Notes: generated by a model from the sequence alone, not told the origin. DNA of 64,000 nucleotides from Pirellulales bacterium (GCA_040877415.1 JBBDNV010000087.1:20884-84883), one strand, 5' to 3'; positions 3,931-54,881 are shown, numbered from the stretch's first letter. Numbers and translations: made by a program.

Positions 3931-4233
3931 ACCTCAAATATACGTGCCACCGGCGGACTTGTCGCGGCTTGGCACGCGCGCAAAAGCCCGCCTATACTAA
4001 CGGCTCGTTGAGCACGGCGCGCCCTAGGAAGGCAAAGTCTACCTCGTGATCTACAAATTTGAGGACGGCAAAATGATCCAGTGCATGGAGGTGTCGAACG
4101 AGAAACGCTCCGGCGAGTTTACGGGCCAAGCCGGCAGCGGCAATCTGTTCGAAATCTGGGAGCGAGTCGAGTAGCCGCGCGCCCCCGCGTGGGGGCCGAA
4201 GTGGAGGGATCGCCCGCAGCCGAAAGATCGAGC

Positions 4234-5451: not shown

Positions 5452-5871
5452 GCGACGGGAAAACACACGGTGCCGGCAACGGCCAATACTATACCTCATG
5501 CGTGCAATTTTCATCGATTTCCGCGTCATTGCGAGACGGGACAAGTCCTTGTGAAATGTTGCTTTACGCCGAGGCACAAGGTGAGGGTCGACCGCCACGT
5601 CTTGGAATCGAATGCAGAAACGTTTATTGGTCAGCCGATCTTTAATCTGGCAACTCGCTGTGACCTGCTGGCGGAGTCGCAGTTTGGCGACCTTGGTCAC
5701 CACTAAACGACATTGAATTTCACCACGACGTAAAAACAAGTGGTTTCCGATACATGGCGCGCTTCGGCGCCCATGAGCCGCACAGCGTTGCTGCCCCGCG
5801 CCTGTGCGGTTCTTTTTTGCGCCGACGGTTTTTTCGGCGCCCCCCGCTTGATCGCGTGCCGGCGCGCACGC

Positions 5872-10902: not shown

Positions 10903-11071
10903 GCACTACGGGGGCGACGCGGGTTTACTGCAATTCTACTTCGCCGCAAAAACAAGTGTGAGCTTCGCGGCGGCCACGAAAAGTCGCGTCGAACCGCTCG
11001 TGGCGGCCGAACGCTCTTGGCCTTTCGCTTGCGACAGGTAGACTTGGGGTGAACGACCGACACTTCGAGCG

Positions 11072-11432
<361 letters not shown>

Positions 11433-11434
<2 letters not shown>

Positions 11435-11579
11435 CCACGCCCCCGGCCCTCGAAGCCACGTGTGAAATGCGCCGCGTGCGGCCAAACTCGCCGGTAACCA
11501 CCACCAGCACGCGCCCGTCCAAGCCATGCTGATAGACGCGATTGCTGTCGTCCGAAAGGCGATTTCCGTTCAGTATCAC
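11433..11579 (-). pseudogene. Internal fragment of a DUF1501-family gene (paralog of 13615-15033)
   Basis: It translates to [35 protein letters not shown]. The intact gene has [34 protein letters not shown]. The DNA at 11432-11530 aligns by eye to 13897-13995 with scattered mismatches. There is no N- or C-terminal remainder. Confidence 0.65.
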
Positions 11580-12394
11580 GTATTATTCAACAAGAAGTAA
11601 GTCGAGAGTCCTATGACGCCCGTCGCAAGAGCGACAGCCACGACGCGCAGAAAGTTGTGAAGCAGGTCGTTGCCTTCTCCAGCAATGCTGCCAATGAGGC
11701 GGTCAATCGCTCCAATCAGAGTCATGAGCAACGCGCCGGACTGTCTGAAAACACTCGCGGTAGCCTCTCCCACGCTCTGGAAACGTTCAGGATTTACTTC
11801 AATCCATGGATCTAGGGCGTCAGATGCCTGATCTCGCGTAAATTGTGCAGCTGCGTCCCGGACGCCTTCTAATGCCTTTGCGAATTCGTCAACTGCCGCA
11901 TATTTGGAAGTTTGCAAGTAAGCGAGCAGACCGCCCCGAGCGTACAACAGCATCTCTCCATATTGACACACAGGCAGTTGAGAGTTGCTGCTGAATCGTC
12001 GATCAGGACCACCATCCTTATTGGGATGCTCCCACGTATGCCCGAGAATTGTCGCGTCCCCAGGCGCAATTCGCTCAATGAAGCGTACGCTCTTTGTCGA
12101 GGCCGTTAATTCGTTGTAGGTCACGTGAGCAATTCCGGATGAGTCGTAAAGGACGATTCCATTCGGCAGCAAATAAAGCGTGCGACCGGACAATCGGATC
12201 GCGGGAATTGGGACATCTGATTTGACCCAAAGCGGCGTTCCTTGACCTACGGATGCCGCAACTCGATGCTCGTGTAGTGTAGGCAGATGGAGCGACGGCG
12301 AATCTCCCATCGCGCGCACAACGCTACCAGCCAGATTGAAAGACAGAGAGCGACTGCCGCCAGAGTGGGATTTATGAAGAATGCGCCGATGCAA
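11576..12394 (-). CDS. Hypothetical protein, probably the C-terminal continuation of the upstream DUF4236 ORF
   Basis: AT-richer DNA. Conserved-looking core TWEHPNKDGGPDRRFSSNSQLPVCQYGEM and a C-terminal TM (VAVALATGVIGLSTYFLL). It overlaps ORF 12247-12759 by 148 nt in another frame. Confidence 0.45.
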   Translation of the reverse strand: MHRRILHKSHSGGSRSLSFNLAGSVVRAMGDSPSLHLPTLHEHRVAASVGQGTPLWVKSDVPIPAIRLSGRTLYLLPNGIVLYDSSGIAHVTYNELTASTKSVRFIERIAPGDATILGHTWEHPNKDGGPDRRFSSNSQLPVCQYGEMLLYARGGLLAYLQTSKYAAVDEFAKALEGVRDAAAQFTRDQASDALDPWIEVNPERFQSVGEATASVFRQSGALLMTLIGAIDRLIGSIAGEGNDLLHNFLRVVAVALATGVIGLSTYFLLNNT

Positions 12395-12759
12395 ACCGCC
12401 GTCGACGCTAGTCCCACTAGCATATCAATTCGATGCCACTGGCGCGGTTGCGCGAGCAGTTGTAGCATCTGTGACGTGGACGCTTTCGCGAGTGAGGCCG
12501 CCGACGATGCCGAAAACACGTTGGTTGGCTGAGTGGTTGTTGAAGCAGCATTCGAAGCTGTCGGCGTGCGTGCTGAACGGTTGCGGGTAAGCTCTTGTCG
12601 GTAATAAACACCGTAGCGACCCGCGTGCACGTATTCCGTGCCGTTCGGTCGGATGCCGTAACGAAGTCCGGTGATGCCGACGGACGCTCCGATGCCCGAT
12701 TTGGACAAATTCAACCGAATCGGTCCCAACCTGATTGATTTGCGAAAATAGAGCCCCAT
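12247..12759 (-). CDS. DUF4236 domain-containing membrane protein (N-terminal part)
   Basis: The N-terminus MGLYFRKSIRLGPIRLNLSKSGIGASVGITGLRYGI is the DUF4236 signature as I recall it. A Ser/Thr/Ala-rich linker follows, then two TM segments. Confidence 0.6.
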   Translation of the reverse strand: MGLYFRKSIRLGPIRLNLSKSGIGASVGITGLRYGIRPNGTEYVHAGRYGVYYRQELTRNRSARTPTASNAASTTTQPTNVFSASSAASLAKASTSQMLQLLAQPRQWHRIDMLVGLASTAVCIGAFFINPTLAAVALCLSIWLVALCARWEIRRRSICLHYTSIELRHP

Positions 12760-21265: not shown

Positions 21266-21464
21266 GCAGGGTTTCGCGGTCAAGACGTAGGGCAAAATGC
21301 GTCACTTCATTGTACGCGACGCGGGAATCGGCGAGGAGCGACGTAAGGGCGGGGTAGTGTCTGAACAGTGAGTTGGTCGCCGCTACTCCCCAGAGTCCGG
21401 TAGTGTCGAAACTGTGTGTTGCTGGCTGGTCAGAAATGCAACCACAGTCAGCAGGCAGGTGGTT

Positions 21465-21689
21465 CTATGCGTCTAGGAATTCCTCTAAGGGAACGGACGC
21501 CTGCTTCAAGATGCCATGCAACGTTCCCTTTTTGACTGCTTTGCTACCGTGGCATGGCACGGTAGTCATTGCGGCCGAAACCGCGTGCCGCAGGATCACA
21601 TGGCCGTCCTTGCAGTGGTCTTCCTCAAAACCTAGGCGCTTCAATCGCCGAACAACCTCAGCACCAGTTAGCTGGGGTAGCTTAGCCAT
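21465..21689 (-). CDS. hicA: Type II toxin HicA
   Basis: 74 aa from MAKLPQLTGAEVVRRLKRLGFEE...GHVILRH...KKGTLHGILKQA, the classic HicA pattern. Its start overlaps the hicB end by 8 nt. Confidence 0.8.
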   Translation of the reverse strand: MAKLPQLTGAEVVRRLKRLGFEEDHCKDGHVILRHAVSAAMTTVPCHGSKAVKKGTLHGILKQASVPLEEFLDA

Positions 21690-22017
21690 TAACCTTGATC
21701 CGACGTCGCTTGGCGTTCGCGGGAATATCCAAGGCTGGACCATGAGAGAACAGCATTTCTTCGTGGTGCTTGCGCCTTGCTTCCAGCATCGCAATGAACG
21801 CTTCTGCGATGTTTGATTCCGCCTCTTCCAGCGTATCGCCTTGGCTGATTACGCCAGGATAGTTAAGAGCGAAGATCGAAAAGCCGCCATCATCCTCTGG
21901 ACATGCCACAGCGACAAATTCATGGGGGGGAGGCGTCTGATGCGTCCACACAATGCGCACAATCTTGCCTCGTGAGGCCACACCTGCTTCGCGGGAAAGT
22001 GGAGAAAGTACCGTCAT
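21682..22017 (-). CDS. hicB: HicB-family antitoxin (short form, no obvious DNA-binding domain)
   Basis: Start at MTVLSP. The HicB/UPF0150 core is FVAVACPEDDGGFSIFALNYPGVISQGDTLEEAESNIAEAF. An ATGA overlap joins it to the upstream ORF. Confidence 0.7.
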   Translation of the reverse strand: MTVLSPLSREAGVASRGKIVRIVWTHQTPPPHEFVAVACPEDDGGFSIFALNYPGVISQGDTLEEAESNIAEAFIAMLEARRKHHEEMLFSHGPALDIPANAKRRRIKVNG

Positions 22018-22484
22018 TGATCGGCTCCCGGTTCGGTTGCTTGCTCTTCGGCTTTTTTTACTGTAATGCGCCATGATCCAAGGATTTCGCCATCGTGCAA
22101 AAGATCGAGAGAGTAGTTCCCGACCTTATCTGTTGGGAGCAATGGCATCGGCAATACATACTCGGCAACCGCTACTGGGTCCGCAGCGGTCACAACAACC
22201 TGTGCTTCAAATAAAACGCATGAATCAGATAAGTCCACGAATTTCAGGCTAAGCGGAAGTTGTCCGTGAACTTCCACTAGGGCGAGATAAAGATACGGCG
22301 ACCCAGCTTTGGTTATTGGCTGTGAAATAACTTGCCGTTGGTCATCACCCTCGCTCGTCAGGGCAACCTTCGCCGTTCCGAATAGGATTCCAGTGAATGT
22401 ACCGGAAATGATATGTTTGCCGGTCAACCTATCCTGATAAACATGATCTGCAAGCACCATTGCTTGCAGGATGGGCTTTGGCAT
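22014..22484 (-). CDS. Hypothetical protein, first gene of the X-hicB-hicA operon
   Basis: 156-aa ORF in AT-richer DNA, translationally coupled to hicB. The N-terminus MPKPILQAMVLADHVYQDRLTGKHIISGTF looks like a small beta-rich family that I cannot name with confidence. Confidence 0.5.
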   Translation of the reverse strand: MPKPILQAMVLADHVYQDRLTGKHIISGTFTGILFGTAKVALTSEGDDQRQVISQPITKAGSPYLYLALVEVHGQLPLSLKFVDLSDSCVLFEAQVVVTAADPVAVAEYVLPMPLLPTDKVGNYSLDLLHDGEILGSWRITVKKAEEQATEPGADQ

Positions 22485-35275: not shown

Positions 35276-35608
35276 ATGGCTGATCTAACCACACTCGCCG
35301 GCATTGAAGCCGAGCTTGCTGCCACCGCGGACTACGACGTCGCGATCGACGTTTCCAAGGCGAAGCGTCGTGTGGCGGCGTTGCGCCCCAAGCTCGTCTT
35401 TCCGGAGTCGAGCGGACGCGGCGAGCAGAACATCGCATTCGCCATGCAGGCGATTCAAGACCGGATGCAGCAGGCGTCACGCCGGCGCCGTCATGCGATG
35501 GGTCGGAACGGGGCGGCCCGGACGGAAGCTCTTGGTCTCGTGCCAGGTTGTTTTCGCGCCTGCTGTCGAACAGGCCGCTTCGACCGCCGAGCGCACTTCG
35601 CGCTCTAG
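35276..35608 (+). CDS. Doubtful small ORF
   Basis: The first ~65 aa look protein-like ([36 protein letters not shown]...). The last ~45 aa are Arg-rich and antisense to the 3' end of the GTPase gene (132-nt convergent overlap). Confidence 0.25.
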
Positions 35609-36580
35609 TTGTTCCGGATCGAGCGCCACCCGGGCGTTGACGATCAATTCGGCGTCGCGCGTCTGGCTTCGCGAGGGGAGCGAAAGCTCGGGCTGCGATT
35701 GGCTGCTCACCAGGTTGGCCACGGCGAACGAATCGGGCGCGAGTCCGATCACTTTCAAGTGGGCCGTTTCGGCATCGGCCGCGCCAAGCGCCGCGTGCAA
35801 CCGGCCGATGATGTCGAGCGTCAGCCGATCGAGATCGATCGGTTTGTCGCTGTCGAGCGACAGCCGGGCGTTGAGCCAGCCCAGCTCCGCCTCGCCTGCG
35901 GCATAGATATCGTAGTCCAAGTCCAGAATGCGCCGGCCGAAGTCGCCGCGCTGATCGAGAAACGCCGAAAGCGCGTCAAAACCTGCGCCGCTCTTGGCCG
36001 AGATGCGCAACTGCGGCGTGTCGGGAAACTCATCGGCTACAAGATTGGCAAGCTCGTCGGCGTCGGACGACGACAATTCGTCGATGCGGTTGATCAGAAC
36101 GAGATCGGCTTCTTCGAGCTGCTTGCGAAATATATACGCGGCCTTGGGCGAAAAGCCGGACTTTTCGCGGGGCTTTAAAATCCGCAGCCCATGACTCGGC
36201 TTCAGAATCACGCCATAGGGAGCCACTTCGAACCGTCCCTGGTAAAGCTGCACAAGGGGCTGCACGACCGTGGCGACCAGATCGGTGCAACTGCCGACCG
36301 GCTCGGCCAGGATGAAGTCGGGCCGGGCGGCCGCTTGGAGGCTTTCGACCGTGTTGATCAAATCGTTGAAGTGGCAGCAGAAGCAAGCGCCGGCCACTTC
36401 GCCGACCAGGTGTCCCTGCGACCGCAGCAAGTGCGTATCGACCAGGTCGGCCGCCTGGTCGTTGGTGACGATGCCGACGCTGTGCCCTTGCTTGCCGAGC
36501 ATGCCCGCCAGCCGCCCGATCATCGTCGTTTTGCCCGCGCCCAGAAAGCCCCCGACCATGATGAAGCGAATCGGTTTCAT
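35477..36580 (-). CDS. G3E-family P-loop GTPase (CobW/HypB/UreG-like metallochaperone family)
   Basis: Start at [16 protein letters not shown] (P-loop). GACFCCHF (CxCC metal motif). [17 protein letters not shown] (NKxD-like). Confidence 0.75.
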
Positions 36581-36849
36581 GGCCCAATTGTAATGAGAGC
36601 CGGCGCCAGAGTGCAAGGAAGTCTCACCTGGCGCGCGGGCTGCATTGAGGCGAAACCTCGGATTAGCCGGCCTGGCAATTGTAGGGTATTCCGATGAAAA
36701 CGCATCTGCGGCATATAACGCCGGCCTGTCGCTGAATTCTGACGGTCCACCGCCCGTTGTTACCGAAGGCAGACGACCGCTCCGCCATTATTCTGCGCAA
36801 AAGGTACTCTTAGAGCGGAAGATTTTCTCACCGGGCGCCTGTATGGTTT

Positions 36850-43341: not shown

Positions 43342-43804
43342 GATCGGTGTTCAGGCTGTGCCGGGAATGGGGGACGCCCAAAATCCGGCAACTCAAGCTG
43401 GTCGTTGATGCGGCGAATTTCCTATTTCAGCAGCAATCGATCTGCGCTGCAATCCTAGCATGTTCGACGCGCGACGGCAGCGAAATCGGCCCCCCGCCCA
43501 GCGTTGAAATCTCTCGGGTGACCGCGATAACCTCACGAACCCGAGCCGTCACGCCACAGATGGCCAAAACCGGACGAGCCGGTCGGCGCCCGCTGAAACG
43601 TCCCCACCGGATCGGCAGACCTTGGGCACCGGGCCGGCGCTGCCCGAAAACCCACGCGACCGGTGCCGTTTTTGGGGGCCATCGAACATCCGCGGGCTAC
43701 TGGTCGCCGCAAACCTTACGAGGGAAACCCAGGCAGGCAGCGACCGCGGTGGGCAACCTTACGGATTTGTAATTTTCGTCGCCCTTTCTGACGCTTCATA
43801 GAAT

Positions 43805-43819
43805 TGGCAACATACATGC
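43805..43819 (+). promoter_or_regulatory. Possible sigma-54 (-24/-12) promoter element
   Basis: TGGCAACATACATGC has GG and GC at the consensus spacing (TGGCAC-N5-TTGC). It lies 55 nt upstream of ATG 43874. This is a single weak match and no enhancer-binding protein is in the window. Confidence 0.25.
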
Positions 43820-43873
43820 CGTGCGCGGCCATTTTTGCGGCGCGCGACGAGACCATTCAGGAAGCCTGCCGAC

Positions 43874-44569
43874 ATGCAACTGACACTGCCCGACGTAGTT
43901 CGTTTGTTCGGCGTGACGGAGAACACGGTCAGGAACTGGATCAACGACGACAACCTGCCCTGCGAAGTCATCGACGATCGTTATCGCTTCAACCAGGCCG
44001 AGCTGTTGGAGTGGGCGACGATCCGCAAGTTGAACGTCTCGCCGTCGATCTTCGAGGCCGTCAACGGCAACGCGGTTTCCGAAAGTTCGCTGTCGGCGGC
44101 GCTCGAAAGCGGCGGCATTGCCTACCAGGTGAAGGCAACCCACAAACGGGCCCTGCTGCGACGTATCGTCGACGAACTTCCACTGCCCGAAGGCTTCGAC
44201 CGCGACGTTCTCTTGCAATTGTTCCTGGCCCGAGAGGCACTTGGCAGCACGGCCCTGGAAGGGGGCATCGCGGTTCCGCATCCGCGCCGGCCCATCGTGC
44301 TCGATGTCGAGCGGCCCATCGTCCGTCTCTGCTTTTTGGCGGAACCGCTCGACTTTCAGGCTCCCGATGGGAAGCCTGTGAATACACTGTTTGCCATGGT
44401 TGCGCCGACGGTGCATGAGCATCTGCAACTGTTGGCACGGCTAGCGTCGGTTCTCAAGGACCACCAGGTGCGGCGCGTGCTGAGCGAACGAGCTTCCGCA
44501 CAGGAAATTCTCGCGGCAGTCAGCGACGCCGACCACCGACTCGGCGCTCGATCGGTGGAGGCCACTTGA
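43874..44569 (+). CDS. HTH (MerR/excisionase-type) DNA-binding protein fused to a PTS EIIA(Ntr)/PtsN-like domain
   Basis: AGGAAG precedes ATG 43874. The HTH is LTLPDVVRLFGVTENTVRNWINDDNLP. The EIIA_2 region is REALGSTALEGGIAVPHPRRP (phosphorylatable His context) ...NTLFAMVAP...HLQLLARLA. Confidence 0.75.
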   Translation: MQLTLPDVVRLFGVTENTVRNWINDDNLPCEVIDDRYRFNQAELLEWATIRKLNVSPSIFEAVNGNAVSESSLSAALESGGIAYQVKATHKRALLRRIVDELPLPEGFDRDVLLQLFLAREALGSTALEGGIAVPHPRRPIVLDVERPIVRLCFLAEPLDFQAPDGKPVNTLFAMVAPTVHEHLQLLARLASVLKDHQVRRVLSERASAQEILAAVSDADHRLGARSVEAT

Positions 44570-46573
44570 ATGGGGCTTTTTCTTGCCGGCCTGGCCGTCG
44601 TCACGTGCGGTGGATTCGTCGCCCTGGCGCTGGCCCGCGCATCGCGCCTGGCCAATCTATTGGGCGCGGCAAGCACGGCCGCCGGCTGCGCGATGGCGCT
44701 GGTTCCCGTGGTCGCGACGCTCGTTTCGGGGACCACTCCGGCGCCGCTGTCGAGGCCATGGAGCGTTCCTTACGGGTCGCTGTCGCTAGGCATCGACCCT
44801 TTGTCCGCGTGGTTCGCGGCGGCCATTCTGGGATTGTCGGGACTAGCCGCGGTCTACGCGGCCGAGTACCTGCTGCGCTATGCGGACCGCAAGAATCTGG
44901 GGGTTGCGTGGTGGTTCTACAGCTTGCTGGTGACGTCGATGGCGGTCGTTGTCACGGCGCGCAACGGCGTTCTTTTTCTCGTCGCCTGGGAAGTGATGGC
45001 GCTGGCGTCGTATTTCCTGGTGGTCTTCGACGACGAGAAGGCCGAGGTCCGCGATGCCGGACGGATCTATCTGATCGCTTCGCACTTGGGAACGGCATTC
45101 CTGCTGGTCTTCTTTGTGCTGCTGGGGCGACAAGCGGGAACCCTTGATTTCGGGGGCATCGAGGATTGGATCCGCGCGACGGGCGGCTTCGCGCCGGCGA
45201 CCGCGGGACTCTTGTTCGTGCTGGCCATCGTCGGCTTCGGGACGAAGGCCGGATTCATGCCGTTTCACGTCTGGCTTCCCAAGGCGCATCCCGTTGCGCC
45301 AAGCCATGTCTCGGCCGTGATGTCGGGCGTGATGATCAAGACGGGCATCTACGGCCTGGTGCGAACGCTGACACTGCTCGGGGAACCAGCCGCCTGGTGG
45401 GGCTGGTTGCTGATCGGTATCGGCGTCGTTTCGGGCATTATGGGAGTGCTCTACGCCCTGGGACAGCACGACGTGAAGCGACTGCTCGCGTACCACAGCG
45501 TCGAAAACATCGGCATCATCGCCCTCGGCCTGGGCATCGGACTGCTCGGCGTCACGCTGGACGAACCGGCCGCGGCAGCGCTCGGCTTCGGCGGCGCCTT
45601 GCTGCACGTCGTCAATCACGCCTTGTTCAAGGGGCTGCTGTTTTTGGGTGCCGGCGCCATCATTCATAGCACGCACACGGCCGACATCGAGCGACTCGGC
45701 GGGCTGCTGAAGCGAATGCCGGTGGTCGGCGTGACCTTTCTCGCCGGCTGCGTGGCGATTTGCGGACTGCCCCCGCTGAATGGCTTCGTCAGCGAGTTCC
45801 TGATCTACCTGGGCGCTTTCGAAGAAGGGACCCTTGCGGGAGGGGCGGGAGGGATTCCCGCATTGTTCGTCATCGGCAGCCTGGCATTGATCGGCGGCCT
45901 GGCCGTCGCGGCATTCACCAAGGCTTTCGGCGTGATCTTTCTGGGCGAGCCGCGCACCGACGCGGCGCGGAACGCTCATGCTCCCGGACTGTTGATGCAG
46001 GCTCCCCTGGTGATTCTGGCCGCGGGCTGCTTACTGGTGACGTTGGCGGCCGTGCCGATTGTCAAAGCGCTCACGCCGGTGCTAGCCGTTGCCGTCGGCC
46101 AGCCAGCAGGCGTCGTGTCCGAGCAGATGACCGGCGCGGTCGGGTCACTGGCCGCCGTCACGGGAATTGCGATCACCTTGCTTGCCGTCGCATCCGCACT
46201 GGCCCTGCTGCGCGTGTGGCTGCTGTGGGGACGCGACGTTGGCGCCAGCCCAACCTGGGACTGCGGATATGCGCGTCCAACCGCCAGGATGCAATACACG
46301 GCCTCGTCGTTCGCTCAACCGCTCGCCGACTTTTTCTCGGCCGTGCTGCAGACGCGGAAAAGGCTTTCGCCGCCCCGCGGGTTTTTTCCGCTCGAAGCGA
46401 GCCTGGAGACCGAAATTCCGGACGTTGCATTGGAGCGCGGCTATCAGCCGCTGTTTCGCGGCGTGAGCTGGATTCTGTCCTGGCTGAGCTGGATTCAGCA
46501 CGGTCGGGTAAGCGTCTACATTCTGTACATCGCGGTGACGATGGTGGCGTTGCTGGTCTGGTACGTCAGTTAA
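44570..46573 (+). CDS. NuoL/HyfB-like antiporter-type membrane subunit
   Basis: 667 aa and about 16 TM. Proton_antipo_M hallmarks are present (GFGTKAGFMPFHVWLPKAHPVAPSHVSAVMSGVMIKTGIYG, LAYHSVENIG). The ATG directly follows the regulator stop. Confidence 0.85.
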   Translation: MGLFLAGLAVVTCGGFVALALARASRLANLLGAASTAAGCAMALVPVVATLVSGTTPAPLSRPWSVPYGSLSLGIDPLSAWFAAAILGLSGLAAVYAAEYLLRYADRKNLGVAWWFYSLLVTSMAVVVTARNGVLFLVAWEVMALASYFLVVFDDEKAEVRDAGRIYLIASHLGTAFLLVFFVLLGRQAGTLDFGGIEDWIRATGGFAPATAGLLFVLAIVGFGTKAGFMPFHVWLPKAHPVAPSHVSAVMSGVMIKTGIYGLVRTLTLLGEPAAWWGWLLIGIGVVSGIMGVLYALGQHDVKRLLAYHSVENIGIIALGLGIGLLGVTLDEPAAAALGFGGALLHVVNHALFKGLLFLGAGAIIHSTHTADIERLGGLLKRMPVVGVTFLAGCVAICGLPPLNGFVSEFLIYLGAFEEGTLAGGAGGIPALFVIGSLALIGGLAVAAFTKAFGVIFLGEPRTDAARNAHAPGLLMQAPLVILAAGCLLVTLAAVPIVKALTPVLAVAVGQPAGVVSEQMTGAVGSLAAVTGIAITLLAVASALALLRVWLLWGRDVGASPTWDCGYARPTARMQYTASSFAQPLADFFSAVLQTRKRLSPPRGFFPLEASLETEIPDVALERGYQPLFRGVSWILSWLSWIQHGRVSVYILYIAVTMVALLVWYVS

Positions 46574-46576
46574 TCG

Positions 46577-47506
46577 ATGCGGTGGGTTGATATGCGGTTC
46601 GTTCCCTTGATCCTCGCGCTTGCGTTGGCCCCGTTGCTGCGGGGGATTATCAACCGCACCAAGGCACGGTTTGCCGGACGAGCGGGTCCGCCGCTGTTGC
46701 AGGCGTATTACGATCTGTCCAAGCTGTTGAGGAAAGGCGCTGTCTACAGCCATACGACGACCTGGGTCTTTCGCGCCGGGCCGATCGTGTCGTTGTCCGG
46801 CGTGCTGGTCGCCGCCACGCTGCTTCCTTTTGGCAATTGTCCCTCCGCGGTCGCATTTCCCGGCGACCTTGTGGTGTTCGTCTATTTGCTGGCCGTGGGG
46901 CGGTTTTTCACCGTGGCCGCGGCGCTCGACACGGGATCGGCCTTCGAAGGCATGGGAAGCAGCCGCGAGGTGTTCTTTTCGGCTCTGGCCGAACCCTCCT
47001 TGTTGCTTGGCATGGCGGCCGTCGCGCGCGAGTCGATTGGAGGATCGGCGTTTACTTCGCTGTCTGAAATACTGAGCGCCGCCAGTGGGCATCTATGGGT
47101 GAACTTGGGGCTGATCCTCGTTTTCGTCGCCGTTGCGCTGTTCGTCGTGTGCCTTGCCGAGAACGCGCGCATGCCCGTCGATGACCCAACCACGCACCTC
47201 GAGCTGACGATGATCCACGAGGTGATGGTGCTCGATCACGGCGGACCGGACTTCGCGCTAGTCAACTATGCCGCGGCGCTCAAATTGTGGCTCACCGCAG
47301 CGCTCATCGTCGGCATCGTCGTCCCGTCCACGCACCTACTCGTCGTGGACGTCGCGGTTTCGCTGTCCGCGATGGCGTTTTTGGCCGTTTTGATCGGCGC
47401 TGTGGAATCGACGATGGCCCGGCTGCGGATGGTGCGCGTTCAGCAGTTGCTCATTGGCGCAGCTACGCTCACCTTTCTGGCCCTGATCCTGGAGTATCGC
47501 GCGTAA
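46577..47506 (+). CDS. NuoH/HyfC/HycD-like membrane subunit
   Basis: 309 aa polytopic. AGRAGPPLLQAYYDLSKLLRKG, ENARMPVDDPTTHLELTMIHE. Alternative start at 46592. Confidence 0.8.
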   Translation: MRWVDMRFVPLILALALAPLLRGIINRTKARFAGRAGPPLLQAYYDLSKLLRKGAVYSHTTTWVFRAGPIVSLSGVLVAATLLPFGNCPSAVAFPGDLVVFVYLLAVGRFFTVAAALDTGSAFEGMGSSREVFFSALAEPSLLLGMAAVARESIGGSAFTSLSEILSAASGHLWVNLGLILVFVAVALFVVCLAENARMPVDDPTTHLELTMIHEVMVLDHGGPDFALVNYAAALKLWLTAALIVGIVVPSTHLLVVDVAVSLSAMAFLAVLIGAVESTMARLRMVRVQQLLIGAATLTFLALILEYRA

Positions 47507-48150
47507 TGACTTCGCCGTCCGACATCATTCTGGTTCTCGTCATCCTGATCAACCTGCTGCTGCTCGGGACGGGACGACTGCGCTCCTGCATTCGCGCTGT
47601 CGCGGTTCAAGGCGCCGCCATCGGGCTCTTGCCGCTCTTGGTCTCGAGCGCAGGATTCAGCCCGCGGCTGACCCTGGTGGCCGTAGTGAGCGTGGCACTT
47701 AAGGGATTCGTGTTTCCGTGGCTGCTCTTCCGGTCGATGCGCAGCGCCAACGTCCGCCACGAAGTCGATCCTGTGATCGGTTACACGGCGTCGATCCTGG
47801 CGGGCGTCGTGTTGACAGGCGCGTCGTTCTGGATGGCGTCGCGCTTGCAGCTTCCCATCGTGCCGGTTTCCGACCTCGTGCTGCCCGTGGCGCTCTCCAC
47901 GATTCTCTGCGGCTTGCTGCTGATCGTGTCGCGCCGCCAGGCCTTGAGCCAGGTCGTGGGCTACCTGGTGCTGGAGAACGGGATTTACATCTTCGGAACG
48001 GCGCTGGCGCACGAGGAGCCGCTGCTGGTGGAAATGGGGATTTTGCTGGACGTGTTCGTGGCGGTCCTCGTGATGGGAGTCGCCGTGTTCCACATCAGCC
48101 GGGAGTTCGACCACATTGACGTCGATCATCTGGCACGCTTGAAGGATTGA
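47506..48150 (+). CDS. HyfE-like small membrane subunit
   Basis: TAATG overlap with the previous gene. 214 aa and about 7 TM. LENGIYIFGTAL resembles the hydrogenase-4 component E family. Confidence 0.7.
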   Translation: MTSPSDIILVLVILINLLLLGTGRLRSCIRAVAVQGAAIGLLPLLVSSAGFSPRLTLVAVVSVALKGFVFPWLLFRSMRSANVRHEVDPVIGYTASILAGVVLTGASFWMASRLQLPIVPVSDLVLPVALSTILCGLLLIVSRRQALSQVVGYLVLENGIYIFGTALAHEEPLLVEMGILLDVFVAVLVMGVAVFHISREFDHIDVDHLARLKD

Positions 48151-48189
48151 AACGGCTCGAGCCGGCCGCAGGGCCGGGAGACAATCCGC

Positions 48190-49755
48190 GTGATTTTACT
48201 GGCACTGATTCTTGTTCCCACGCTGGCCGGCGGGCTGGCGTTCGCGATGCGCGCAAAGATGTGGCGCCGGACGCTCCTGATCGCCACCGCGCTTGTGCAT
48301 GCGGCCTTGACCGCTTCGCTGTGGATCGATCGGCCCGGGCCGGTGCTGAACCAGTGGCTGGCGGTCGATTCCCTGGGGCTCTTGTTTTTGAGCATTGTGA
48401 GCGGGTTGTTTCTCGCCTCGGCGGTGTACTCGATCGCGTACCTGCGCGAGGAAGAGGCCGCTCGTCACATTGACCGCGAGGAGGGGTTTTTATTCTCCAA
48501 TGAGCCGGAGGCGGTGTTCGTCGGTTGCCTGTTGTTGTTCCTGGCGTCGATGACCATGGTGACGCTGAGTCATCACCTGGGATTGTTGTGGGTCGGCATT
48601 GAGGGAACGACGTTGGCCAGCGCGCCATTGATTTACTTCCACAGGCACCATCGGTCGCTGGAGGCGACGTGGAAGTATATTCTCATCTGTTCCGTCGGCA
48701 TTGCCCTGGCATTGATGGGAAACTTTGTCCTGAGCGTGGCCACGACCAGCCCCGACGGCCGGCACGAGATTCCGTTGATCGTCCATCGGCTGCTCGAGAA
48801 TGCCGGCCGGATCCGCGTGGATTGGCTCAGGGCCGCGTTCCTGTTTTTCCTCGTCGGGTACGGGACAAAGATGGGATTGGCGCCGCTGCACACGTGGCTG
48901 CCCGACGCGCATAGCGAAGCGCCCTCGCCCGTCTCGGCATTGCTCTCCGGAGCCTTGCTGAATTGCGCGTTCCTGGGCATCCTGCGCGTTCACCAGTTGT
49001 GCGTTGCCGCCGGTGAAGCGGCGTTCAGCAGTCCGCTCTTGATCTTGTTCGGCGTGCTCTCGCTGACCGTCGCCGCGGTGTTCATCATGCGGCAAACCGA
49101 CATCAAGCGCATGTTGGCCTACTCGAGCGTCGAGCACATGGGAGTGCAGGTCATCGGCGTCGGGCTGGGAGGAGCCGGCGTGTTCGGCGCCATGCTCCAC
49201 TCCGTCAATCATTCCCTGACCAAGGCGGCGCTGTTCCTTACCGCCGGGAACATCCTGGCGTACTTTGGCAGAAAGCGCGTCGACGAAGTGAGCGGAATGA
49301 ACCGCGCGCTGCCCACGAGCGCCGTGCTGTGGATTGCCGGTTTTCTGGCCATTACCGGGTCGCCGCCGTTCGGCGCGTTTCTGAGCGAGTTTACGATCCT
49401 CAAGGCGGCGCTCGACGGCGAGCGATTCGTCGTCGCGGTGCTGTATCTTGTCATGCTAGCGCTGATCTTCGTCGGCATGGCCAACATCTTTTTGCGCATG
49501 GCGCAAGGGGGCCGGCCCAAGACCAAAGGCCCGGGCGCCCGCGAAACGCCGCTGGCCCTGCTGTCGCCGGTGCTGCTGTTGTCGTGCACGCTCGTGCTCG
49601 GCCTGTACGTGCCTCGACCGCTCGAGAACGTCTGCCGCGACGTGCAATCGTCTCTGGAGACTCCGGCCCGCGCCCGAGCGGCGGCGGAGAAGCCCGAGGC
49701 TCGCACGGTACTTTCCCACTCCACCGTTCGGCCGAATCGCACTCTCAAGAAATAG
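48190..49755 (+). CDS. NuoM/NuoN/HyfF-like antiporter-type membrane subunit
   Basis: GTG start with GGGAG 7 nt upstream. GYGTKMGLAPLHTWLPDAHSEAPSPVSALLSGALLN, LAYSSVEHMG. Confidence 0.8.
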   Translation: MILLALILVPTLAGGLAFAMRAKMWRRTLLIATALVHAALTASLWIDRPGPVLNQWLAVDSLGLLFLSIVSGLFLASAVYSIAYLREEEAARHIDREEGFLFSNEPEAVFVGCLLLFLASMTMVTLSHHLGLLWVGIEGTTLASAPLIYFHRHHRSLEATWKYILICSVGIALALMGNFVLSVATTSPDGRHEIPLIVHRLLENAGRIRVDWLRAAFLFFLVGYGTKMGLAPLHTWLPDAHSEAPSPVSALLSGALLNCAFLGILRVHQLCVAAGEAAFSSPLLILFGVLSLTVAAVFIMRQTDIKRMLAYSSVEHMGVQVIGVGLGGAGVFGAMLHSVNHSLTKAALFLTAGNILAYFGRKRVDEVSGMNRALPTSAVLWIAGFLAITGSPPFGAFLSEFTILKAALDGERFVVAVLYLVMLALIFVGMANIFLRMAQGGRPKTKGPGARETPLALLSPVLLLSCTLVLGLYVPRPLENVCRDVQSSLETPARARAAAEKPEARTVLSHSTVRPNRTLKK

Positions 49756-49770
49756 TCGAGCATTCCTCCG

Positions 49771-51297
49771 ATGACGCTCGTTTCCGAAACGCGAAGCATA
49801 CGCAACGGCGAGCGGCTGGCGCTGGCCAAGGTGCCGCAACTGCCGCTCGGCGAACTGCAGTCGTGGCTCGACGAGCGGATCGCCGCCGGCGGTCAGCTTT
49901 CCGCGCTGTTTGGCGTTCCGCTGGACTCGACGGCGCTGGCGCTCTACGCCGTCACGACCGCGGCAACCAGCGGCACCATTGCGGTTGCGGAAACGGTCGT
50001 CAAAGGACGCTATCCCGCGCTCACGCCGCGCGTGCCCCAGGCCCATTGGTTCGAGCGCGAGATCGCCGAGCAGTGGGGCGTGGTGCCCGAAGGCCACCCC
50101 TGGCTGAAGCCGATTCGTTTTCACGCCTCGTACGCCTCCGGCAGGGACGCATGGAACCGGGCGGCCGGCGAGGCGATCCTGCCGGGCGTAACCGATTATT
50201 TCCGGGTCGAGGGGGAGGAAATTCACGAAGTCGCCGTGGGGCCGGTCCACGCCGGCGTCATCGAGCCCGGCCATTTTCGGTTTCAGTGCCACGGCGAGCA
50301 CGTGTTTACGCTGGAAATCGAGCTGGGCTATCAACACCGCGGCATCGAGCGCCAGCTCGTGGGCGGTCCCACGAAGCGGACGCTGCATTACATGGAGACC
50401 CTGGCGGGAGATACCACGATCGGGCACGCAGCGGCGTATTCCCAGGCCGTCGAGGGATTGTCCGGCTCCGCGCCTCCGCTGCGGGCACAAGCCATTCGGG
50501 TGATCGCGCTCGAGCTCGAGCGGCTGGCCAACCACGTCGGCGATCTCGGTGCGCTGGCGCAGGACGTGGGCTATTTGCCGACGGCGTCCTACTGCGGCCG
50601 TCTCCGCGGAGATTTTTTGAACGCGACCGCGATGATTTGCGGCAATCGTTTTGGTCGCGGAACCGTGCGCCCCGGCGGCGTCGGATTCGATATCGACGAA
50701 TCGCTGGCAAAAGCGCTGTGCGAGAAGGTCGAGGCCGCGCTGCGAGACGTCGAGGGAGCCACCCGGCTGCTGTGGACCACGTCGAGCGTCATGGCCCGAT
50801 TTGAGGAGACGGGCAGGGTTTCGCGGGCAACGGCGAGTGAGCTGGGGCTCGTGGGACCGGCGGCCCGGGCGTGCGGGATCGATCGCGACATCCGCCGCGA
50901 CTTTCCGTCCGGATATTATCGATTCGCGCAACTGCCCGTGTCGACGTGGCACTCCGGCGACGCGTTTGCGCGGGCCTACTTGCGCTGGTTGGAGGTGAAT
51001 CGCTCCGCCCGTTTCATCATCGAACAGCTTCGCGCGCTTCCGCACACGACGCTTCGCGCCGAGGTCGGTCCGCTCGAGCCGAATAGCCTGGTGGTCGCGT
51101 TGGTCGAAGGCTGGCGCGGTGAGATTTGCCACGTGGCGCTCACCGACGACGACGGCCGCTTTGCCCACTACAAGGTGGTCGATCCTAGCTTTCACAATTG
51201 GATCGGGCTGGCCATGTCGCTTCGCGACCAGCAGATTTCGGATTTTCCCCTGTGCAACAAGAGTTTCAACCTGTCGTACTGCGGTCACGACCTGTGA
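49771..51297 (+). CDS. Fused NuoC-NuoD / HyfG(HycE)-like large subunit lacking the canonical Ni-Fe cysteine ligands
   Basis: The N-terminal part is 30-kDa-like (AHWFEREIAEQWGVVPEGHPWLKP). The 49-kDa/large-subunit core is GPVHAGVIEPGHFRF, LELERLANHVGD. The L1 position reads ETLAGDTTIGH (no Cys). The C-terminus reads DFPLCNKSFNLSYCGHDL instead of DPCxxCxxR. Confidence 0.85.
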   Translation: MTLVSETRSIRNGERLALAKVPQLPLGELQSWLDERIAAGGQLSALFGVPLDSTALALYAVTTAATSGTIAVAETVVKGRYPALTPRVPQAHWFEREIAEQWGVVPEGHPWLKPIRFHASYASGRDAWNRAAGEAILPGVTDYFRVEGEEIHEVAVGPVHAGVIEPGHFRFQCHGEHVFTLEIELGYQHRGIERQLVGGPTKRTLHYMETLAGDTTIGHAAAYSQAVEGLSGSAPPLRAQAIRVIALELERLANHVGDLGALAQDVGYLPTASYCGRLRGDFLNATAMICGNRFGRGTVRPGGVGFDIDESLAKALCEKVEAALRDVEGATRLLWTTSSVMARFEETGRVSRATASELGLVGPAARACGIDRDIRRDFPSGYYRFAQLPVSTWHSGDAFARAYLRWLEVNRSARFIIEQLRALPHTTLRAEVGPLEPNSLVVALVEGWRGEICHVALTDDDGRFAHYKVVDPSFHNWIGLAMSLRDQQISDFPLCNKSFNLSYCGHDL

Positions 51298-51318
51298 TCC
51301 CACCAGGAGACCATCGCG

Positions 51319-52101
51319 ATGCTGAAAGTGCTCGGAGAACGATGGCGTCAGGGCCACCGCACGATTTCGTGGCCGGCCGGCGCTCCGCCGGTGCTGCCGG
51401 AACGCTTTCGCGGCTTGCCGGTCGTCGACACGTCGAAATGCCCCGACGGGTGCCGCGAGTGCGCTAAAGCCTGCCCGACCGATGCGATCACCGTGAATGG
51501 ATCGCTCAAGTTGGACCTGGGACGCTGCCTGTTTTGCACCGATTGCATGGAAGCCTGCCCAGAGGGAGCGATCGCCTATACCCAGGACTTTCGACTTGCC
51601 TCGCGCACCCGAGACGGCCTCGCGATGGATGGCTCGGCGCTAGCGCTGGCCGCAGCATTGGACGAAAAGACGCGCCGGTTGTTCGGCCGCTCCCTGCAAT
51701 TGCGCGAAGTCAGCGCCGGCGGCTGCAACGGCTGTGAAGCGGACGTCAACGTGCTGAGCACGATCGTGTTCGACCTCAGCCGATTTGGCATCAGCATTGT
51801 CGCTTCGCCGCGCCACGCGGATGGCCTGATCATTACCGGCCCGGTCACCCAAAACATGAAGCTGGCGCTGCGCAAGACGTACGATGCGACTCCGCCGCCG
51901 AAGATTGTCGTCGCCGTCGGGGCCTGCGCCATCAGCGGCGGGCCGTATGTGGATCACCCCGAGCAGAACAACGGCGCGGACAGCGTTGTTCCGGTCGACC
52001 TGTATATTCCCGGCTGCCCACCCCATCCCCTGACGATTCTCGACGGCCTGCTGCGCTTGTTGGGACGGATTGAGGATGGGACGCGGCGCGCCGCAACTTA
52101 A
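51319..52101 (+). CDS. Fusion of a 2x[4Fe-4S] ferredoxin module (NuoI/HycF-like) with a NuoB/HycG-like small subunit
   Basis: AGGAGA precedes the ATG. Ferredoxin motifs are CPDGCRECAKACP and CLFCTDCMEACP. NuoB-type cluster ligands are GGCNGCE, GACAISGGP and PGCPP. Confidence 0.8.
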   Translation: MLKVLGERWRQGHRTISWPAGAPPVLPERFRGLPVVDTSKCPDGCRECAKACPTDAITVNGSLKLDLGRCLFCTDCMEACPEGAIAYTQDFRLASRTRDGLAMDGSALALAAALDEKTRRLFGRSLQLREVSAGGCNGCEADVNVLSTIVFDLSRFGISIVASPRHADGLIITGPVTQNMKLALRKTYDATPPPKIVVAVGACAISGGPYVDHPEQNNGADSVVPVDLYIPGCPPHPLTILDGLLRLLGRIEDGTRRAAT

Positions 52102-52116
52102 AGCGATGTTCGAATC

Positions 52117-54135
52117 ATGGCTCAAGCAACCCTAGAAATTCCACGCGGAAACGCCGCCGGGTTTCGCAAGTATTTCCAGCACGACTTGCCGGCGGGTTTC
52201 CTGGTGTTCCTCATCGCGCTGCCGCTTTGTCTGGGGATTTCCCTGGCCTGCGGGTATCCGCCGCTGGCGGGGATCTTCACGGCCATCATCGGCGCGATTC
52301 TGACGACGTTCATCAGCAATTCCGAGCTCACCATCAAAGGACCGGCGGCGGGTTTGATTGTCATCGCCATAGGCTGCATCGAAGACTTCGGCGGCGACGG
52401 CGCCGTGGGCGGATTCACCGGGGCGGACATGACAGCCTACAAGGTGGCGCTGGCCGTCGGCGTGGCCGCCGCGGTGCTCCAGATCCTGTTCGGCCTGTTT
52501 CGCGCCGGCATCCTGGGTGAGTTCTTTCCGATCTCGGCCGTGCACGGCATGCTGGCGGCGATCGGCGTGATCATCGTCGCCAAACAGATTCCCGTCGCGC
52601 TGGGGGTCGAGGCGAAAGGCGATCCGCTGGTGCTGCTGCGAGACATTCCCCACTTCGTCGTCGAGGCCAACCCGGCCATCGCCGCCATCGGGGTCGTCGG
52701 CATGCTCATCATGTTCCTGTGGCCGGTCGTCCGTCACCGGCTCGGCTTTCTGAAGTTGATCCCGGCGCCCATGGTCGTGCTGCTGGCGACGGTGCCGATG
52801 GGCATGGCCTTCGATCTTTTGCACGCCCATTCATACGCGCTCGAGGGACACAAGTACCAGCTCGGGGGGCAGTACCTGGTGTCGATGCCGGACCGCGTGT
52901 TTGGCATGTTCGATGAGATCACGCTGCCCGATTTTTCGGCCCTTGCCCAGCCGAAGGCCTGGAAGTGGGTGTTCATGTTCTTCGTGATCGGGAGCCTGGA
53001 GTCGCTCTTGAGCGCGAAGGCCATCGACATCATCGACCCGTGGAAGCGCAAGACGAACATGAATCGCGACATGACGGCCATCGGCGTGGCCAACCTGGCC
53101 AGCGCGCTGGTGGGCGGCCTGCCGATGATTTCCGAAATCGTCCGCAGCAAGGCCAATATCGACAACGGCGCGAGGACCCGCTTCGCCGACATGTGGCACG
53201 GCGTCTTCTTGCTGGCCTGCGTGGCGTTGATTCCGACAATCCTGCACCGGATCCCGCTGGCGGCGCTGGCGTCCATGCTGGTCTACACCGGCTACCGGCT
53301 GGCGCATCCTTCCGAGTTCATTCACGTCTATCACGTCGGTCGCGAGCAGCTCGTTGTCTTCGTAACGACCCTGATCGGGGTGCTGGCGACCGACTTGCTG
53401 ATCGGAATCGGGATCGGCATCGGCGTCAAGCTGCTGATTCACATTGTCAACGGCGTGCCGCTGAGTTCGTTGGTCAAGCCGTATCTGGAGGTGTCCGACG
53501 TCGATGACCGAACCTGCAGGATCTTGGCCCACGGTTCGGCCGTGTTCACCAATTGGATTCCGTTCCGCCGCGAAATCGAAAACCTCGGGTTGGTGCAGCG
53601 CAAGAACGTGATCGTCGATCTCTCGGATACGACGCTTGTGGACCACAGCGTGATGGACAAGTTGGCTGTGATGCAGCGCGACTTCGCTCAAGAGGGCTTG
53701 TCGCTCGAGATCACCGGGCTTGACGCCCACCAGCAATTGTCGCGACACGATCAGGCCGCCCGCAAGCGCGGGCTGGCGCGAATCCGCCGCCTCACCGTCA
53801 TCACGGACAAGGCGCACGAGAAATGGCTCGAGGAGGAGTTCGTCGGGTGTGGGGCCAGCGGCTACACCGTCGTCCCTTGCTTGGGAGCCGGCTGGCGGCA
53901 CATCGCCGGGAACGAAGCGTCCGCAAACTCGCAAGTGCGTATCGAGGTGATTGTCACGAACGATGTCTGCGCACGTATTCTTGAATTCTTACGAAGGGAG
54001 GTTCGGCCCGAACACCACACGACTGCTTGCGTCGAAACCGTCGAAGTGTTGCGCATTGGTCAGTTCCGGGTCGATCAAGCCGAACGCATTCCTGGGGTTG
54101 CCGGCATGGCGTCGCAAACCGATCATGGGGGATGA
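52117..54135 (+). CDS. SulP-family anion transporter with STAS domain and an additional C-terminal PII-like domain
   Basis: SulP core ([58 protein letters not shown]). STAS ([19 protein letters not shown]). About 110 extra aa follow, with a beta-alpha-beta-beta-alpha-beta look ([30 protein letters not shown]...[19 protein letters not shown]). Confidence 0.85.
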
Positions 54136-54221
54136 TGGAACCGTCGGGCGCCGCGTGCTCGGCCCCGCGGCGCCGCACGGCGAACTCATCGTCACGGCCC
54201 CCGCTCATCAAGGAGAGTCGA

Positions 54222-54881
54222 ATGCGAACCCTTCGAGAGCTGATCGAAAACAATCGGAAATGGTCGGAAGACATCACGCGGCGCGATCCCGATTTCTTCC
54301 CGCGGCTCGCTCGCCAGCAGCAGCCGCGGTACCTTTGGATCGGATGTGCCGACAGTCGCGTGCCGGCGAACCAGGTCGTGGGTTTGGATCCGGGTGAGTT
54401 GTTCGTGCATCGCAACGTTGCCAATCTGGTCGTGCATTCGGATTTAAACTGCCTTTCGGTGATTCAGTACGCGGTCGAGGTGCTAGAGGTCGAGCACGTC
54501 ATTGTTTGCGGTCACTACGGGTGCGGCGGCGTCAAGGCCGCCCTGGAGAACGAGCAGCTTGGACTGATCGACAACTGGCTCAGGCACATTCAGGACATCC
54601 GAGACAAGCACATGACGAGCCTGGAAAGGATCGCGGACGCCGCGGCTCGCTGCGACCGGCTGTGCGAGCTGAACGTCGTGGAGCAGGTTGTCAACGTGTG
54701 CCACACAACGATCGCGCGGGATGCGTGGCGCAGGAATCAGCCGCTGACCGTGCACGGATGGATTTACCGGATCACCGACGGCCATGTGCGGGACCTGAAC
54801 ATGTGCGTCAGGCACCCGGAGGAGCTGTCCGCGAGCTATAACCTGGCGCGCAGTTCCATTGCCATACCGCGGCACGCTTGA
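54222..54881 (+). CDS. Beta-class carbonic anhydrase
   Basis: AAGGAGAG precedes ATG 54222. WIGCADSRVP (Cys-Asp-Arg zinc site) and VCGHYGCGGV (His, Cys ligands). The length is typical for Can/CynT. Confidence 0.9.
   Translation: MRTLRELIENNRKWSEDITRRDPDFFPRLARQQQPRYLWIGCADSRVPANQVVGLDPGELFVHRNVANLVVHSDLNCLSVIQYAVEVLEVEHVIVCGHYGCGGVKAALENEQLGLIDNWLRHIQDIRDKHMTSLERIADAAARCDRLCELNVVEQVVNVCHTTIARDAWRRNQPLTVHGWIYRITDGHVRDLNMCVRHPEELSASYNLARSSIAIPRHA

Follow-up and report, generated by a model that had tools for sequence, protein, structure and literature searches.

Ech-hydrogenase-related (Ehr) complexes were first named in Geobacter sulfurreducens (GSU0739-0745) and have been catalogued in Nitrospira, ammonia-oxidising archaea, Margulisbacteria and other organisms. 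Their function is still called unknown in papers of 2019-2025 (PMC6349859, PMC7894505, PMC10284858, PMC10432482, PMC12342949). DAB is a vectorial CO2 hydratase driven by the proton motive force (PMF), and acts as a system for the accumulation of dissolved inorganic carbon (DIC) (PMC13144422). The locus described here combines an Ehr unit with genes for a SulP anion transporter and a beta-carbonic anhydrase (CA). It is located at 43874-54881 of a 64,000-nucleotide stretch of DNA from a Pirellulales bacterium (GCA_040877415.1, JBBDNV010000087.1:20884-84883); this whole 64-kb stretch is referred to as the window. In one clade of Planctomycetota, genes of the Ehr and DIC types have been kept close to each other through several rearrangements.

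The locus is a putative composite operon, in which two modules are joined. Module 1, the Ehr unit (43874-52101), encodes a protein with HTH and EIIA domains and a six-subunit Ehr complex; module 2, the SulP-PII/CA cassette (52117-54881), encodes a SulP transporter that carries an SbtB-like P-II domain as a fusion, together with a Can-type beta-CA. The features are listed below, with their size in amino acids (aa) and the E-values of their family matches.

43342..43873, + strand: leader, probable promoter region; non-coding, 532 nt from the end of the divergent gene (43341) to the ATG at 43874
43874..44569, + strand: HTH_17 + PTS EIIA_2 protein, 231 aa (Pfam EIIA_2, E 6e-23; HTH_17, E 1e-8)
44570..46573, + strand: EhrA, HyfB/NuoL-like antiporter subunit, 667 aa (Proton_antipo_M, E 8e-57)
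46577..47506, + strand: EhrB, NuoH/HyfC-like, 309 aa (Pfam NADHdh, E 2e-32)
47506..48150, + strand: EhrC, HyfE-like with a NuoK-like C-terminal part, 214 aa (Oxidored_q2, E 2e-6)
48190..49755, + strand: EhrD, HyfF/NuoM-like antiporter subunit, 521 aa (Proton_antipo_M, E 1e-53)
49771..51297, + strand: EhrL, fused NuoC+NuoD-like large subunit, 508 aa (Complex1_49kDa, E 1.5e-34)
51319..52101, + strand: EhrS, ferredoxin (HycF/NuoI-like) and NuoB/HycG-like fusion, 260 aa (Oxidored_q6, E 9e-30; Fer4 families)
52117..54135, + strand: SulP anion transporter with P-II-like domain, 672 aa (Sulfate_transp, E 4e-55)
54222..54881, + strand: type-II (Can-like) beta-carbonic anhydrase, 219 aa (Pro_CA, E 1.5e-55)

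All nine genes are co-directional. As obtained from the listing of open reading frames (ORFs) and the translation of the window, the TGA of the first gene is directly followed by the ATG of EhrA (44569/44570), EhrB follows after 3 nt, and the start of EhrC overlaps the stop of EhrB by one base at 47506 (TAATG). The later gaps measure 39, 15, 21 and 15 nt, the last one separating EhrS from SulP, and 86 nt precede the CA gene. Pfam and NCBIfam models assign, in this order, HTH_17 + PTS_EIIA_2, HyfB/NuoL-like, NuoH-like, HyfE-like, HyfF/NuoM-like, NuoC+NuoD fusion, ferredoxin with two [4Fe-4S] clusters + NuoB, Sulfate_transp and Pro_CA. Genes, order and junctions are those given in a preliminary description, made from the sequence alone, which in these respects was found to be accurate. 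The start of the regulator, placed there at 43805, had to be moved, as no start codon is present in frame at that position; the ORF is open from 43802, and its first ATG, at 43874, produces a protein of 231 aa, which fits the length of the homologues (231-233 aa).

Relatives of the Ehr unit were collected by a genome scan, from which the best 80 of 587, one per species, were searched by tblastn for the nine proteins of the window locus. From HTH-EIIA through EhrA, B, C, D and L to S, gene order is kept in nearly every locus with enough flanking sequence (about 80 loci). More than 10 phyla are represented, including Planctomycetota, Verrucomicrobiota, Myxococcota/'Deltaproteobacteria', Binatia, Acidobacteriota, Lentisphaerota, Omnitrophota, Spirochaetota and Limnocylindria, among others. 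In split clusters, where the membrane genes are divergent, the EIIA gene is still found directly before EhrL (L002-L004, L008, L115, L117 and L119; L numbers denote related loci), and two more HTH-EIIA homologues, picked from a protein search, also adjoin Ehr. Since it is kept as the first gene across phyla, HTH-EIIA is a hallmark of Ehr clusters and not a peculiarity of the window locus; the earlier view of the EIIA gene as the mark of a special system is therefore abandoned. Clustering of the ORFs from the 80 loci produced Ehr genes and antisense shadow ORFs, and no further conserved neighbour. Neither NuoEFG nor another dedicated input module was found in the window or in the 10-kb flanks of the 80 related loci.

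The window locus falls into one Planctomycetota clade of large subunits, defined by a neighbour-joining tree and composed of members 64-86% identical, where, in 12 out of about 16 diverged lineages, Ehr is found linked to SulP-PII, to DabAB or to both. Four arrangements were found. In the first, the Ehr genes are followed by SulP-PII, in some cases with a CA gene (window, P0007 contig, L116, L083 and L098); in the second, SulP-PII is divergent from EIIA (L081); in the third, a split Ehr cluster is followed by DabA-DabB-DabB-SulP-PII (L001, L005, L115, L117 and L119); in the fourth, DabB-SulP-PII lies upstream of a split Ehr cluster (L003). EhrS and DabA are separated by 17 nt in L117; in L119 the two genes overlap (ATGA), which points to translational coupling. 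In L116, a 132-aa ORF (658-1056), located directly upstream of HTH-EIIA, matches just residues 23-134 of DabA (E 9e-14), and is probably the relic of an earlier Dab-Ehr junction; unlike in L116, no DabA relic was found when looked for 5' of the EIIA gene of the window. The linkage is clade-restricted and rearrangement-resistant. The preliminary description made conservation of an Ehr-SulP-CA-EIIA association in related genomes a test; a linkage of Ehr to SulP-PII, DabAB or both holds for 12 lineages of a single clade, and in the roughly 66 loci outside of it a linkage to close SulP-PII or DabA relatives is absent, with the partial exception of L022, from another large-subunit clade, in which a partial SulP (69% identity) is divergent from EIIA. 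Other matches outside the clade are distant for SulP (27-37%; L025, L055) and weak for beta-CA (L017, L029). The idea that Ehr simply provides a 'third way', in place of DAB, is not supported as it stands, Ehr being co-operonic with DabA-DabB-DabB in the third arrangement.

An OmpR-type response regulator and a HAMP histidine kinase, orthologous at 50-63% identity, are common to both locus types. The pair flanks Dab-SulP-PII loci devoid of Ehr (L097, L099 and L109; also L084 and L091), and heads the operon of the split Ehr membrane genes in L117 (6984-9135, - strand), L115, L119, L002 and L004; orthologues are also present in L031. It is found in L002 and L004 despite the absence of Dab or SulP nearby, and has no orthologue in the window. 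The pair is a candidate CO2/DIC-responsive two-component system.

The SulP-PII fusion family shows about 70% identity across Planctomycetota, cultured strains included. Its neighbourhoods were examined by a metagenome scan and in one isolate genome (L114, Stratiformator vulcanicus CP036268): orthologues with 66-79% identity immediately follow DabA-DabB-DabB in at least 11 further loci from Planctomycetes (L086, L087, L089, L097, L099, L101, L106, L107, L109, L111 and L114), often together with beta-CAs. Because in these relatives the cassette sits directly behind DabA-DabB-DabB, SulP-PII/CA is regarded as an inorganic-carbon cassette, as already proposed for the SulP and beta-CA pair, and inorganic-carbon uptake appears to be its best reading, at a score below the cut-off of the BicA model.

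Within SulP, a transmembrane (TM) core (52174-53367) is followed by a weak STAS domain (about 53542-53730) and by the P-II-like domain (53788-54060). The latter, previously noticed as an additional domain of a SulP-STAS protein, was assigned to PF00543 with E-values of 1.5e-10 to 7e-12 (46 bits, cut-off 25), and its best matches among solved structures are TTHA0516 (2e-11) and then the carbon-regulatory SbtB (5e-4); the STAS domain is weakly detectable, with E-values of 0.002-0.02, under the Pfam cut-offs. The CA passes the NCBIfam model PRK10437 (314 bits, cut-off 251). The zinc-site residues C42, D44 and R46 and the HxxC motif (HYGC) can be read in its translation, and no N-terminal signal sequence is evident by eye. 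A role of SulP as a sulfate or dicarboxylate carrier was also considered, and judged less likely in view of the Dab and CA neighbourhood; family models alone do not decide.

Two further observations were made on these cassettes. Canonical DAB contains a single DabB; in Planctomycete DAB operons, two antiporter-like genes come after DabA: the one, of about 460 aa, has an N-terminal domain of the NuoL type, and the other, of about 488 aa, is NuoM-like. Behind them lie SulP-PII and as many as three beta-CAs (L114, 3969-13253; L087, L089, L097, L099, L106, L109, L111, L117 and L119). Orthologues of Porin_O_P, an anion-selective outer-membrane porin, with 43-61% identity, adjoin the SulP-PII cassette in four loci (L116, 12256-13728; L114, 724-2121; L095, about 2585-3874; L108, about 1720-2898).

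The redox sites of the Ehr unit were evaluated on its large and small subunits. The best match of EhrL among solved structures is HycE (7z0s_E, E 1e-42), and the four cysteines which bind NiFe are missing: CGIC of HycE aligns with AGDT, and DPCYSC with NLSYCG. No cysteine is present at the ligand columns in any of 86 large-subunit orthologues (0/86), where the first pair is occupied by A/S/G and T/A/S/M and the second by S and G; the assignment of the locus to the Ehr-type, NiFe-less relatives of group-4 hydrogenases, made from the sequence alone, is thereby supported. The positions of the complex-I quinone ligands (His38 and Tyr87 of Thermus thermophilus Nqo4) correspond to Ile164 and Gly213 of EhrL, both invariant in the 86 sequences. 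Since NiFe cysteines and Nqo4 His/Tyr are all replaced, EhrL is not a hydrogenase, and it is not a canonical quinone reductase either. Other residues are 96-100% conserved, namely D214, C173, C275, C453-H454, C504 and H506. Three of them, D214, C504 and H506, adjoin in sequence the positions from which the NiFe ligands were lost. The C-terminus is invariant (...NKSFNLSYCGHDL); the large subunit stops at ...SYCGHDL, with no extension past it. This pattern of conserved Cys, His and Asp residues suggests a different metal or substrate site, under strong selection.

In EhrS, a ferredoxin domain with two [4Fe-4S] clusters (51418-51579) is joined to a NuoB/HycG-like domain (51724-52056), and all of the 12 cysteines of the three [4Fe-4S] clusters are 94-100% conserved in 47 orthologues. 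The membrane subunits resemble those of hydrogenase 4 and fall under the respective NCBIfam cut-offs: EhrA scores 607 bits (cut-off 667) with the subunit B model, EhrC 102.6 bits (cut-off 136) with the membrane subunit model and EhrD 390 bits (cut-off 610) with the HyfF model. EhrB orthologues in related loci are 48-79% identical. The TM5 Glu (AWEV), TM7 Lys (GTKAG) and TM12 Lys (LFKGL) of EhrA can be read in its translation, as can the conserved Glu/Lys motifs of EhrD (GIEG, GTKMG and LTKAA); the assignment of these residues to TM5, TM7 and TM12 follows established knowledge on NuoL and NuoM. From Fe-S ligands and antiporter motifs, Ehr may reasonably be taken for a redox-coupled ion translocator. 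Among the nine operon proteins, no Pfam match to ChpXY (CupA/CupB) was found, and the Ehr module includes no CA-like or Cup-like subunit. In one Ehr sub-clade, the NuoL-like EhrA is duplicated in tandem (L022, L053, L059, L065, L072 and L078, about 3000-7000 in each), and two of these loci, L022 and L065, also carry two tandem HTH-EIIA paralogues.

The reading proposed for these data is that Ehr, a widely conserved unit, is in this clade co-expressed with DIC uptake genes, to which it would supply ion-motive force or a proton sink; its probability may be roughly set at 0.45. Gene content, residue conservation and synteny are directly observed. The following scheme also involves an electron donor and acceptor, a direction in which the ions flow, bicarbonate as what SulP transports, transcription of the genes together and energetic coupling; these points we infer. 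A low-potential soluble carrier of the ferredoxin type would, most likely, exchange electrons with Ehr at the HycF-like domain, and Ehr would couple this exchange to the movement of H+ or Na+ across the membrane. Because the antiporter subunits sit in an Fe-S Ehr complex, the energy input in the window, if any, would be redox-derived and not a pre-existing PMF. The HTH-EIIA protein would, most likely, set transcription of the operon according to the phosphorylation state of a phosphocarrier of the HPr/NPr type. SulP would be a transporter of the bicarbonate type, with gating by the SbtB-like P-II domain fused to it, and the CA would be cytoplasmic; by providing ion-motive force, or by removing protons, Ehr would promote bicarbonate uptake via SulP, and in relatives carrying DabAB it would also drive the PMF-dependent hydration of CO2.

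Several results weigh against this reading. Neither DabA nor the SulP-PII fusion is found in any of about 66 Ehr loci outside the clade, so DIC genes cannot be required for what Ehr does at its core. Within the clade, L002, L004 and L008 show no Dab or SulP nearby, over full 10-kb flanks. No electron donor or acceptor for Ehr is recognisable from the sequence. SulP reaches 92.8 bits with the BicA model NF050096, whose cut-off is 880, and substrates vary among SulP proteins. Finally, if SulP imports bicarbonate, the pool which it accumulates would be dissipated by the neighbouring CA in the cytoplasm. A more specific form of the proposal, in which Ehr is, in this one Planctomycetota clade, the dedicated redox engine of inorganic-carbon uptake, powering, and perhaps docking with, DabA/DabB/DabB, SulP and beta-CA, can be held tentatively at best.

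The best of the rival explanations, rather unlikely in our view, admits no mechanistic coupling: Ehr would be a general respiratory or redox-balancing module, working for example as a ferredoxin:quinone system or in PMF-driven ferredoxin reduction, and would share its neighbourhood, or a regulator, with DIC genes as a result of one or few ancestral juxtapositions in the clade. Restriction of the linkage to one large-subunit clade of the neighbour-joining tree is what such a history would leave, as are the three members of the same clade with neither Dab nor SulP within 10 kb. The occurrence of Ehr in organisms of very different physiology, its function being listed as unknown (PMC10284858, PMC12342949, PMC7894505), also agrees with it. 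Proximity has however been kept through at least four rearrangements, among large subunits only 64-86% identical, and selection on it is argued for on the ground that it has outlasted them. Tight or overlapping junctions, the presence of SulP divergent from EIIA in L022, from a different large-subunit clade, and the two-component system, shared even by L002 and L004, also speak against a mere neighbourhood. Single-copy genes are expected to lie by chance within 10 kb of each other in about 0.3% of genomes of 6-8 Mb, by our own estimate; shared ancestry inflates the count of linked lineages.

A further explanation, which we consider improbable, goes beyond the coupling of Ehr to DIC uptake and makes Ehr a physical part of a redox-driven supercomplex for vectorial CO2 hydration, an analogue of NDH-1MS outside cyanobacteria. 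In it, the Ehr core would correspond to NDH-1M, DabB1 and DabB2 to NdhF3 and NdhD3, and DabA, or the beta-CA in the window lineage, to CupA. It draws on L001, L115, L117 and L119, where EIIA-EhrL-EhrS-DabA-DabB1-DabB2-SulP-PII form one co-directional string, on the 17-nt gap and the ATGA overlap at the EhrS/DabA junctions, and on the two antiporter-like genes of Planctomycete DAB operons, which parallel NdhF3/NdhD3; CO2 hydration by NDH-1MS is itself driven by redox-coupled proton removal (PMC6981117). The window, though, contains no DabA and no ChpXY/Cup homologue, and its CA is an ordinary soluble enzyme of the Can type. Moreover, at least 11 loci have Dab-SulP-PII but no Ehr, and about 70 have Ehr but no Dab; because each occurs without the other, each of them works alone. 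The sole EIIA-EhrL fusion (P0080) was seen in one assembly, where an indel may have produced it artificially. Least likely of all is an operon for cytoplasmic pH or Na+ homeostasis, in which the CA would interconvert CO2 and HCO3- and so release or take up protons, HCO3- would be carried, perhaps outward, by SulP, and H+ or Na+ by Ehr: the pairing of a cytoplasmic CA with an anion transporter, the relationship of the antiporter-like subunits to Mrp and the Porin_O_P genes next to the cassette in L095, L108, L114 and L116 would fit it, but the usual partner of the cassette is DAB, a DIC accumulation system (PMC13144422), and the fused P-II domain is closest, among functionally characterised proteins, to the carbon-regulatory SbtB.

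The first gene of the operon encodes an HTH domain (43880-44017) and an EIIA domain (44114-44524), with a phosphorylatable His136 (codon 44279-44281). Its nearest relative is PtsN, yet it scores 72.8 with the equivalog model TIGR01419, whose cut-off is 138.7, and it contains the extra HTH_17 domain. Among 43 orthologues, His136, in a GxAxPH motif, is 100% conserved and His183 95%. In L115 (10001-12238), HTH-EIIA and the Ehr large subunit occur in one ORF of 745 aa (P0080), found in one assembly; it is either a true fusion or an assembly indel artefact, and the neighbouring L118, from the same sample, has fragmented genes. The possibility that EIIA is a physical subunit of Ehr, for which this ORF is the sole basis, was set aside.

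The 532-nt leader (43342-43873) may have a regulatory role. No match was obtained with Rfam, and no sigma-70 consensus was found on its + strand, in a scan from which nothing can be concluded in a Planctomycete. Some 95 nt before the first ATG of the operon, an AT-rich 24-mer (cttacggatttgtaattttcgtcg, 43758-43781) is 92% identical, in opposite orientation, to the equivalent leader region of L081, and may be a regulatory site. A k-mer search upstream of 62 EIIA genes revealed no convincing common operator; the words found, in up to 11 loci, were TTGACA-like and TGTCCAAA ones.

The neighbours of the operon on both sides are unrelated and located on the opposite strand. Among them are a hybrid kinase and a GGDEF protein, as well as an ATP-grasp protein with a peptidase on the other strand, and a fatty-acid desaturase downstream; the remainder of the 64-kb window is made of typical Planctomycete genes. 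No hyp, hycI, fdh, nuoEFG, PTS, RuBisCO or DabA genes were found in the rest of the window, in accordance with the earlier statement on hyp/hycI, formate dehydrogenase and NuoEFG, and a tblastn search of the window for DabA gave nothing. The sole hyp-like candidate, a GTPase of the CobW/HypB/UreG superfamily (35477-36616, - strand), matches the cobW family. A promoter and terminator scan, uninformative for a Planctomycete, gave no promoter match on the + strand and located no intergenic terminator-like site within the cluster; all terminator-like sites fall within coding regions, in a number near that expected from shuffled sequences. Two blocks of ORFs, at 10836-12759 (- strand) and 21373-22484, show a third-position GC of 0.47-0.62, compared to about 0.8 elsewhere, and a local GC down to 0.59. 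One of these ORFs (10836-11579) is without a Pfam match, and the blocks may be recently acquired DNA.

Both Ehr complexes and the DIC toolkit are of known kinds. What appears to be undescribed is their combination, the universal pairing of Ehr with HTH-EIIA, and the position of a P-II-fused SulP beside a two-antiporter DAB; among the papers that could be searched, none was found on Ehr-DIC linkage or on HTH-EIIA as the first gene of Ehr clusters. Ehr is found in many phyla, from nitrifiers and Geobacter to Planctomycetes and Verrucomicrobia; the linkage offers a first testable clue to its function, and the conserved first gene points to control of Ehr by the state of phosphoenolpyruvate or of a phosphocarrier. 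The DIC toolkit of heterotrophic Planctomycetes would include a two-antiporter DAB, SulP-PII, beta-CAs, an anion porin and a two-component system.

When compared to known systems, the window shares with the catalogued Ehr the same set of subunits, namely NuoL-, NuoH-, HyfE- and NuoM-like proteins, a CxxC-less large subunit and an Fe-S small subunit (PMC7894505, PMC10284858, PMC12342949, PMC6349859). The Geobacter complex is likened here to it by subunit names (PMC7894505), and the duplicated NuoL-like gene of the sub-clade fits the name 'EhrA-1'. The window differs from the catalogued Ehr in that its Ehr genes form one operon with SulP-PII and beta-CA, and its relatives are associated with DabA-DabB-DabB. 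Hyf/Hyc of E. coli, a group 4a [NiFe]-hydrogenase, provides the best sequence matches for every Ehr subunit, with the same architecture of the membrane arm and the same electron path through HycF-like and HycG-like proteins; in Ehr, however, the four NiFe cysteines are replaced, and hyp, hycI and formate dehydrogenase genes are absent from the window. In SbtA-SbtB, a P-II-like module likewise accompanies a bicarbonate transporter, as a separate protein, whereas in the window it is fused to SulP. BicA-type SulP proteins with an adjacent or fused carbonic anhydrase resemble the window in that SulP lies beside a beta-CA, but the window SulP scores far under the BicA equivalog cut-off.

In DAB/MpsAB, as in the locus described here, genes for the handling of CO2/HCO3- are linked to one for an antiporter subunit of the complex-I type, and SulP-PII is the usual downstream partner of DAB in Planctomycetes. 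The window, by contrast, has no DabA, and its antiporter-like subunits belong to a full Fe-S Ehr complex. The closest working analogy is found in cyanobacterial NDH-1MS/MS' (NdhF3/D3/CupA/CupS), where a ferredoxin-fed complex-I-like core is joined to CO2 uptake (PMC6981117); the window differs from it in the absence of Cup/ChpXY and of the quinone-binding His/Tyr, and any association is known here from gene order alone. If Ehr were indeed an engine of DIC uptake, it would give a heterotroph its own equivalent of cyanobacterial NDH-1MS, and this would be the first physiological role for the Ehr family.

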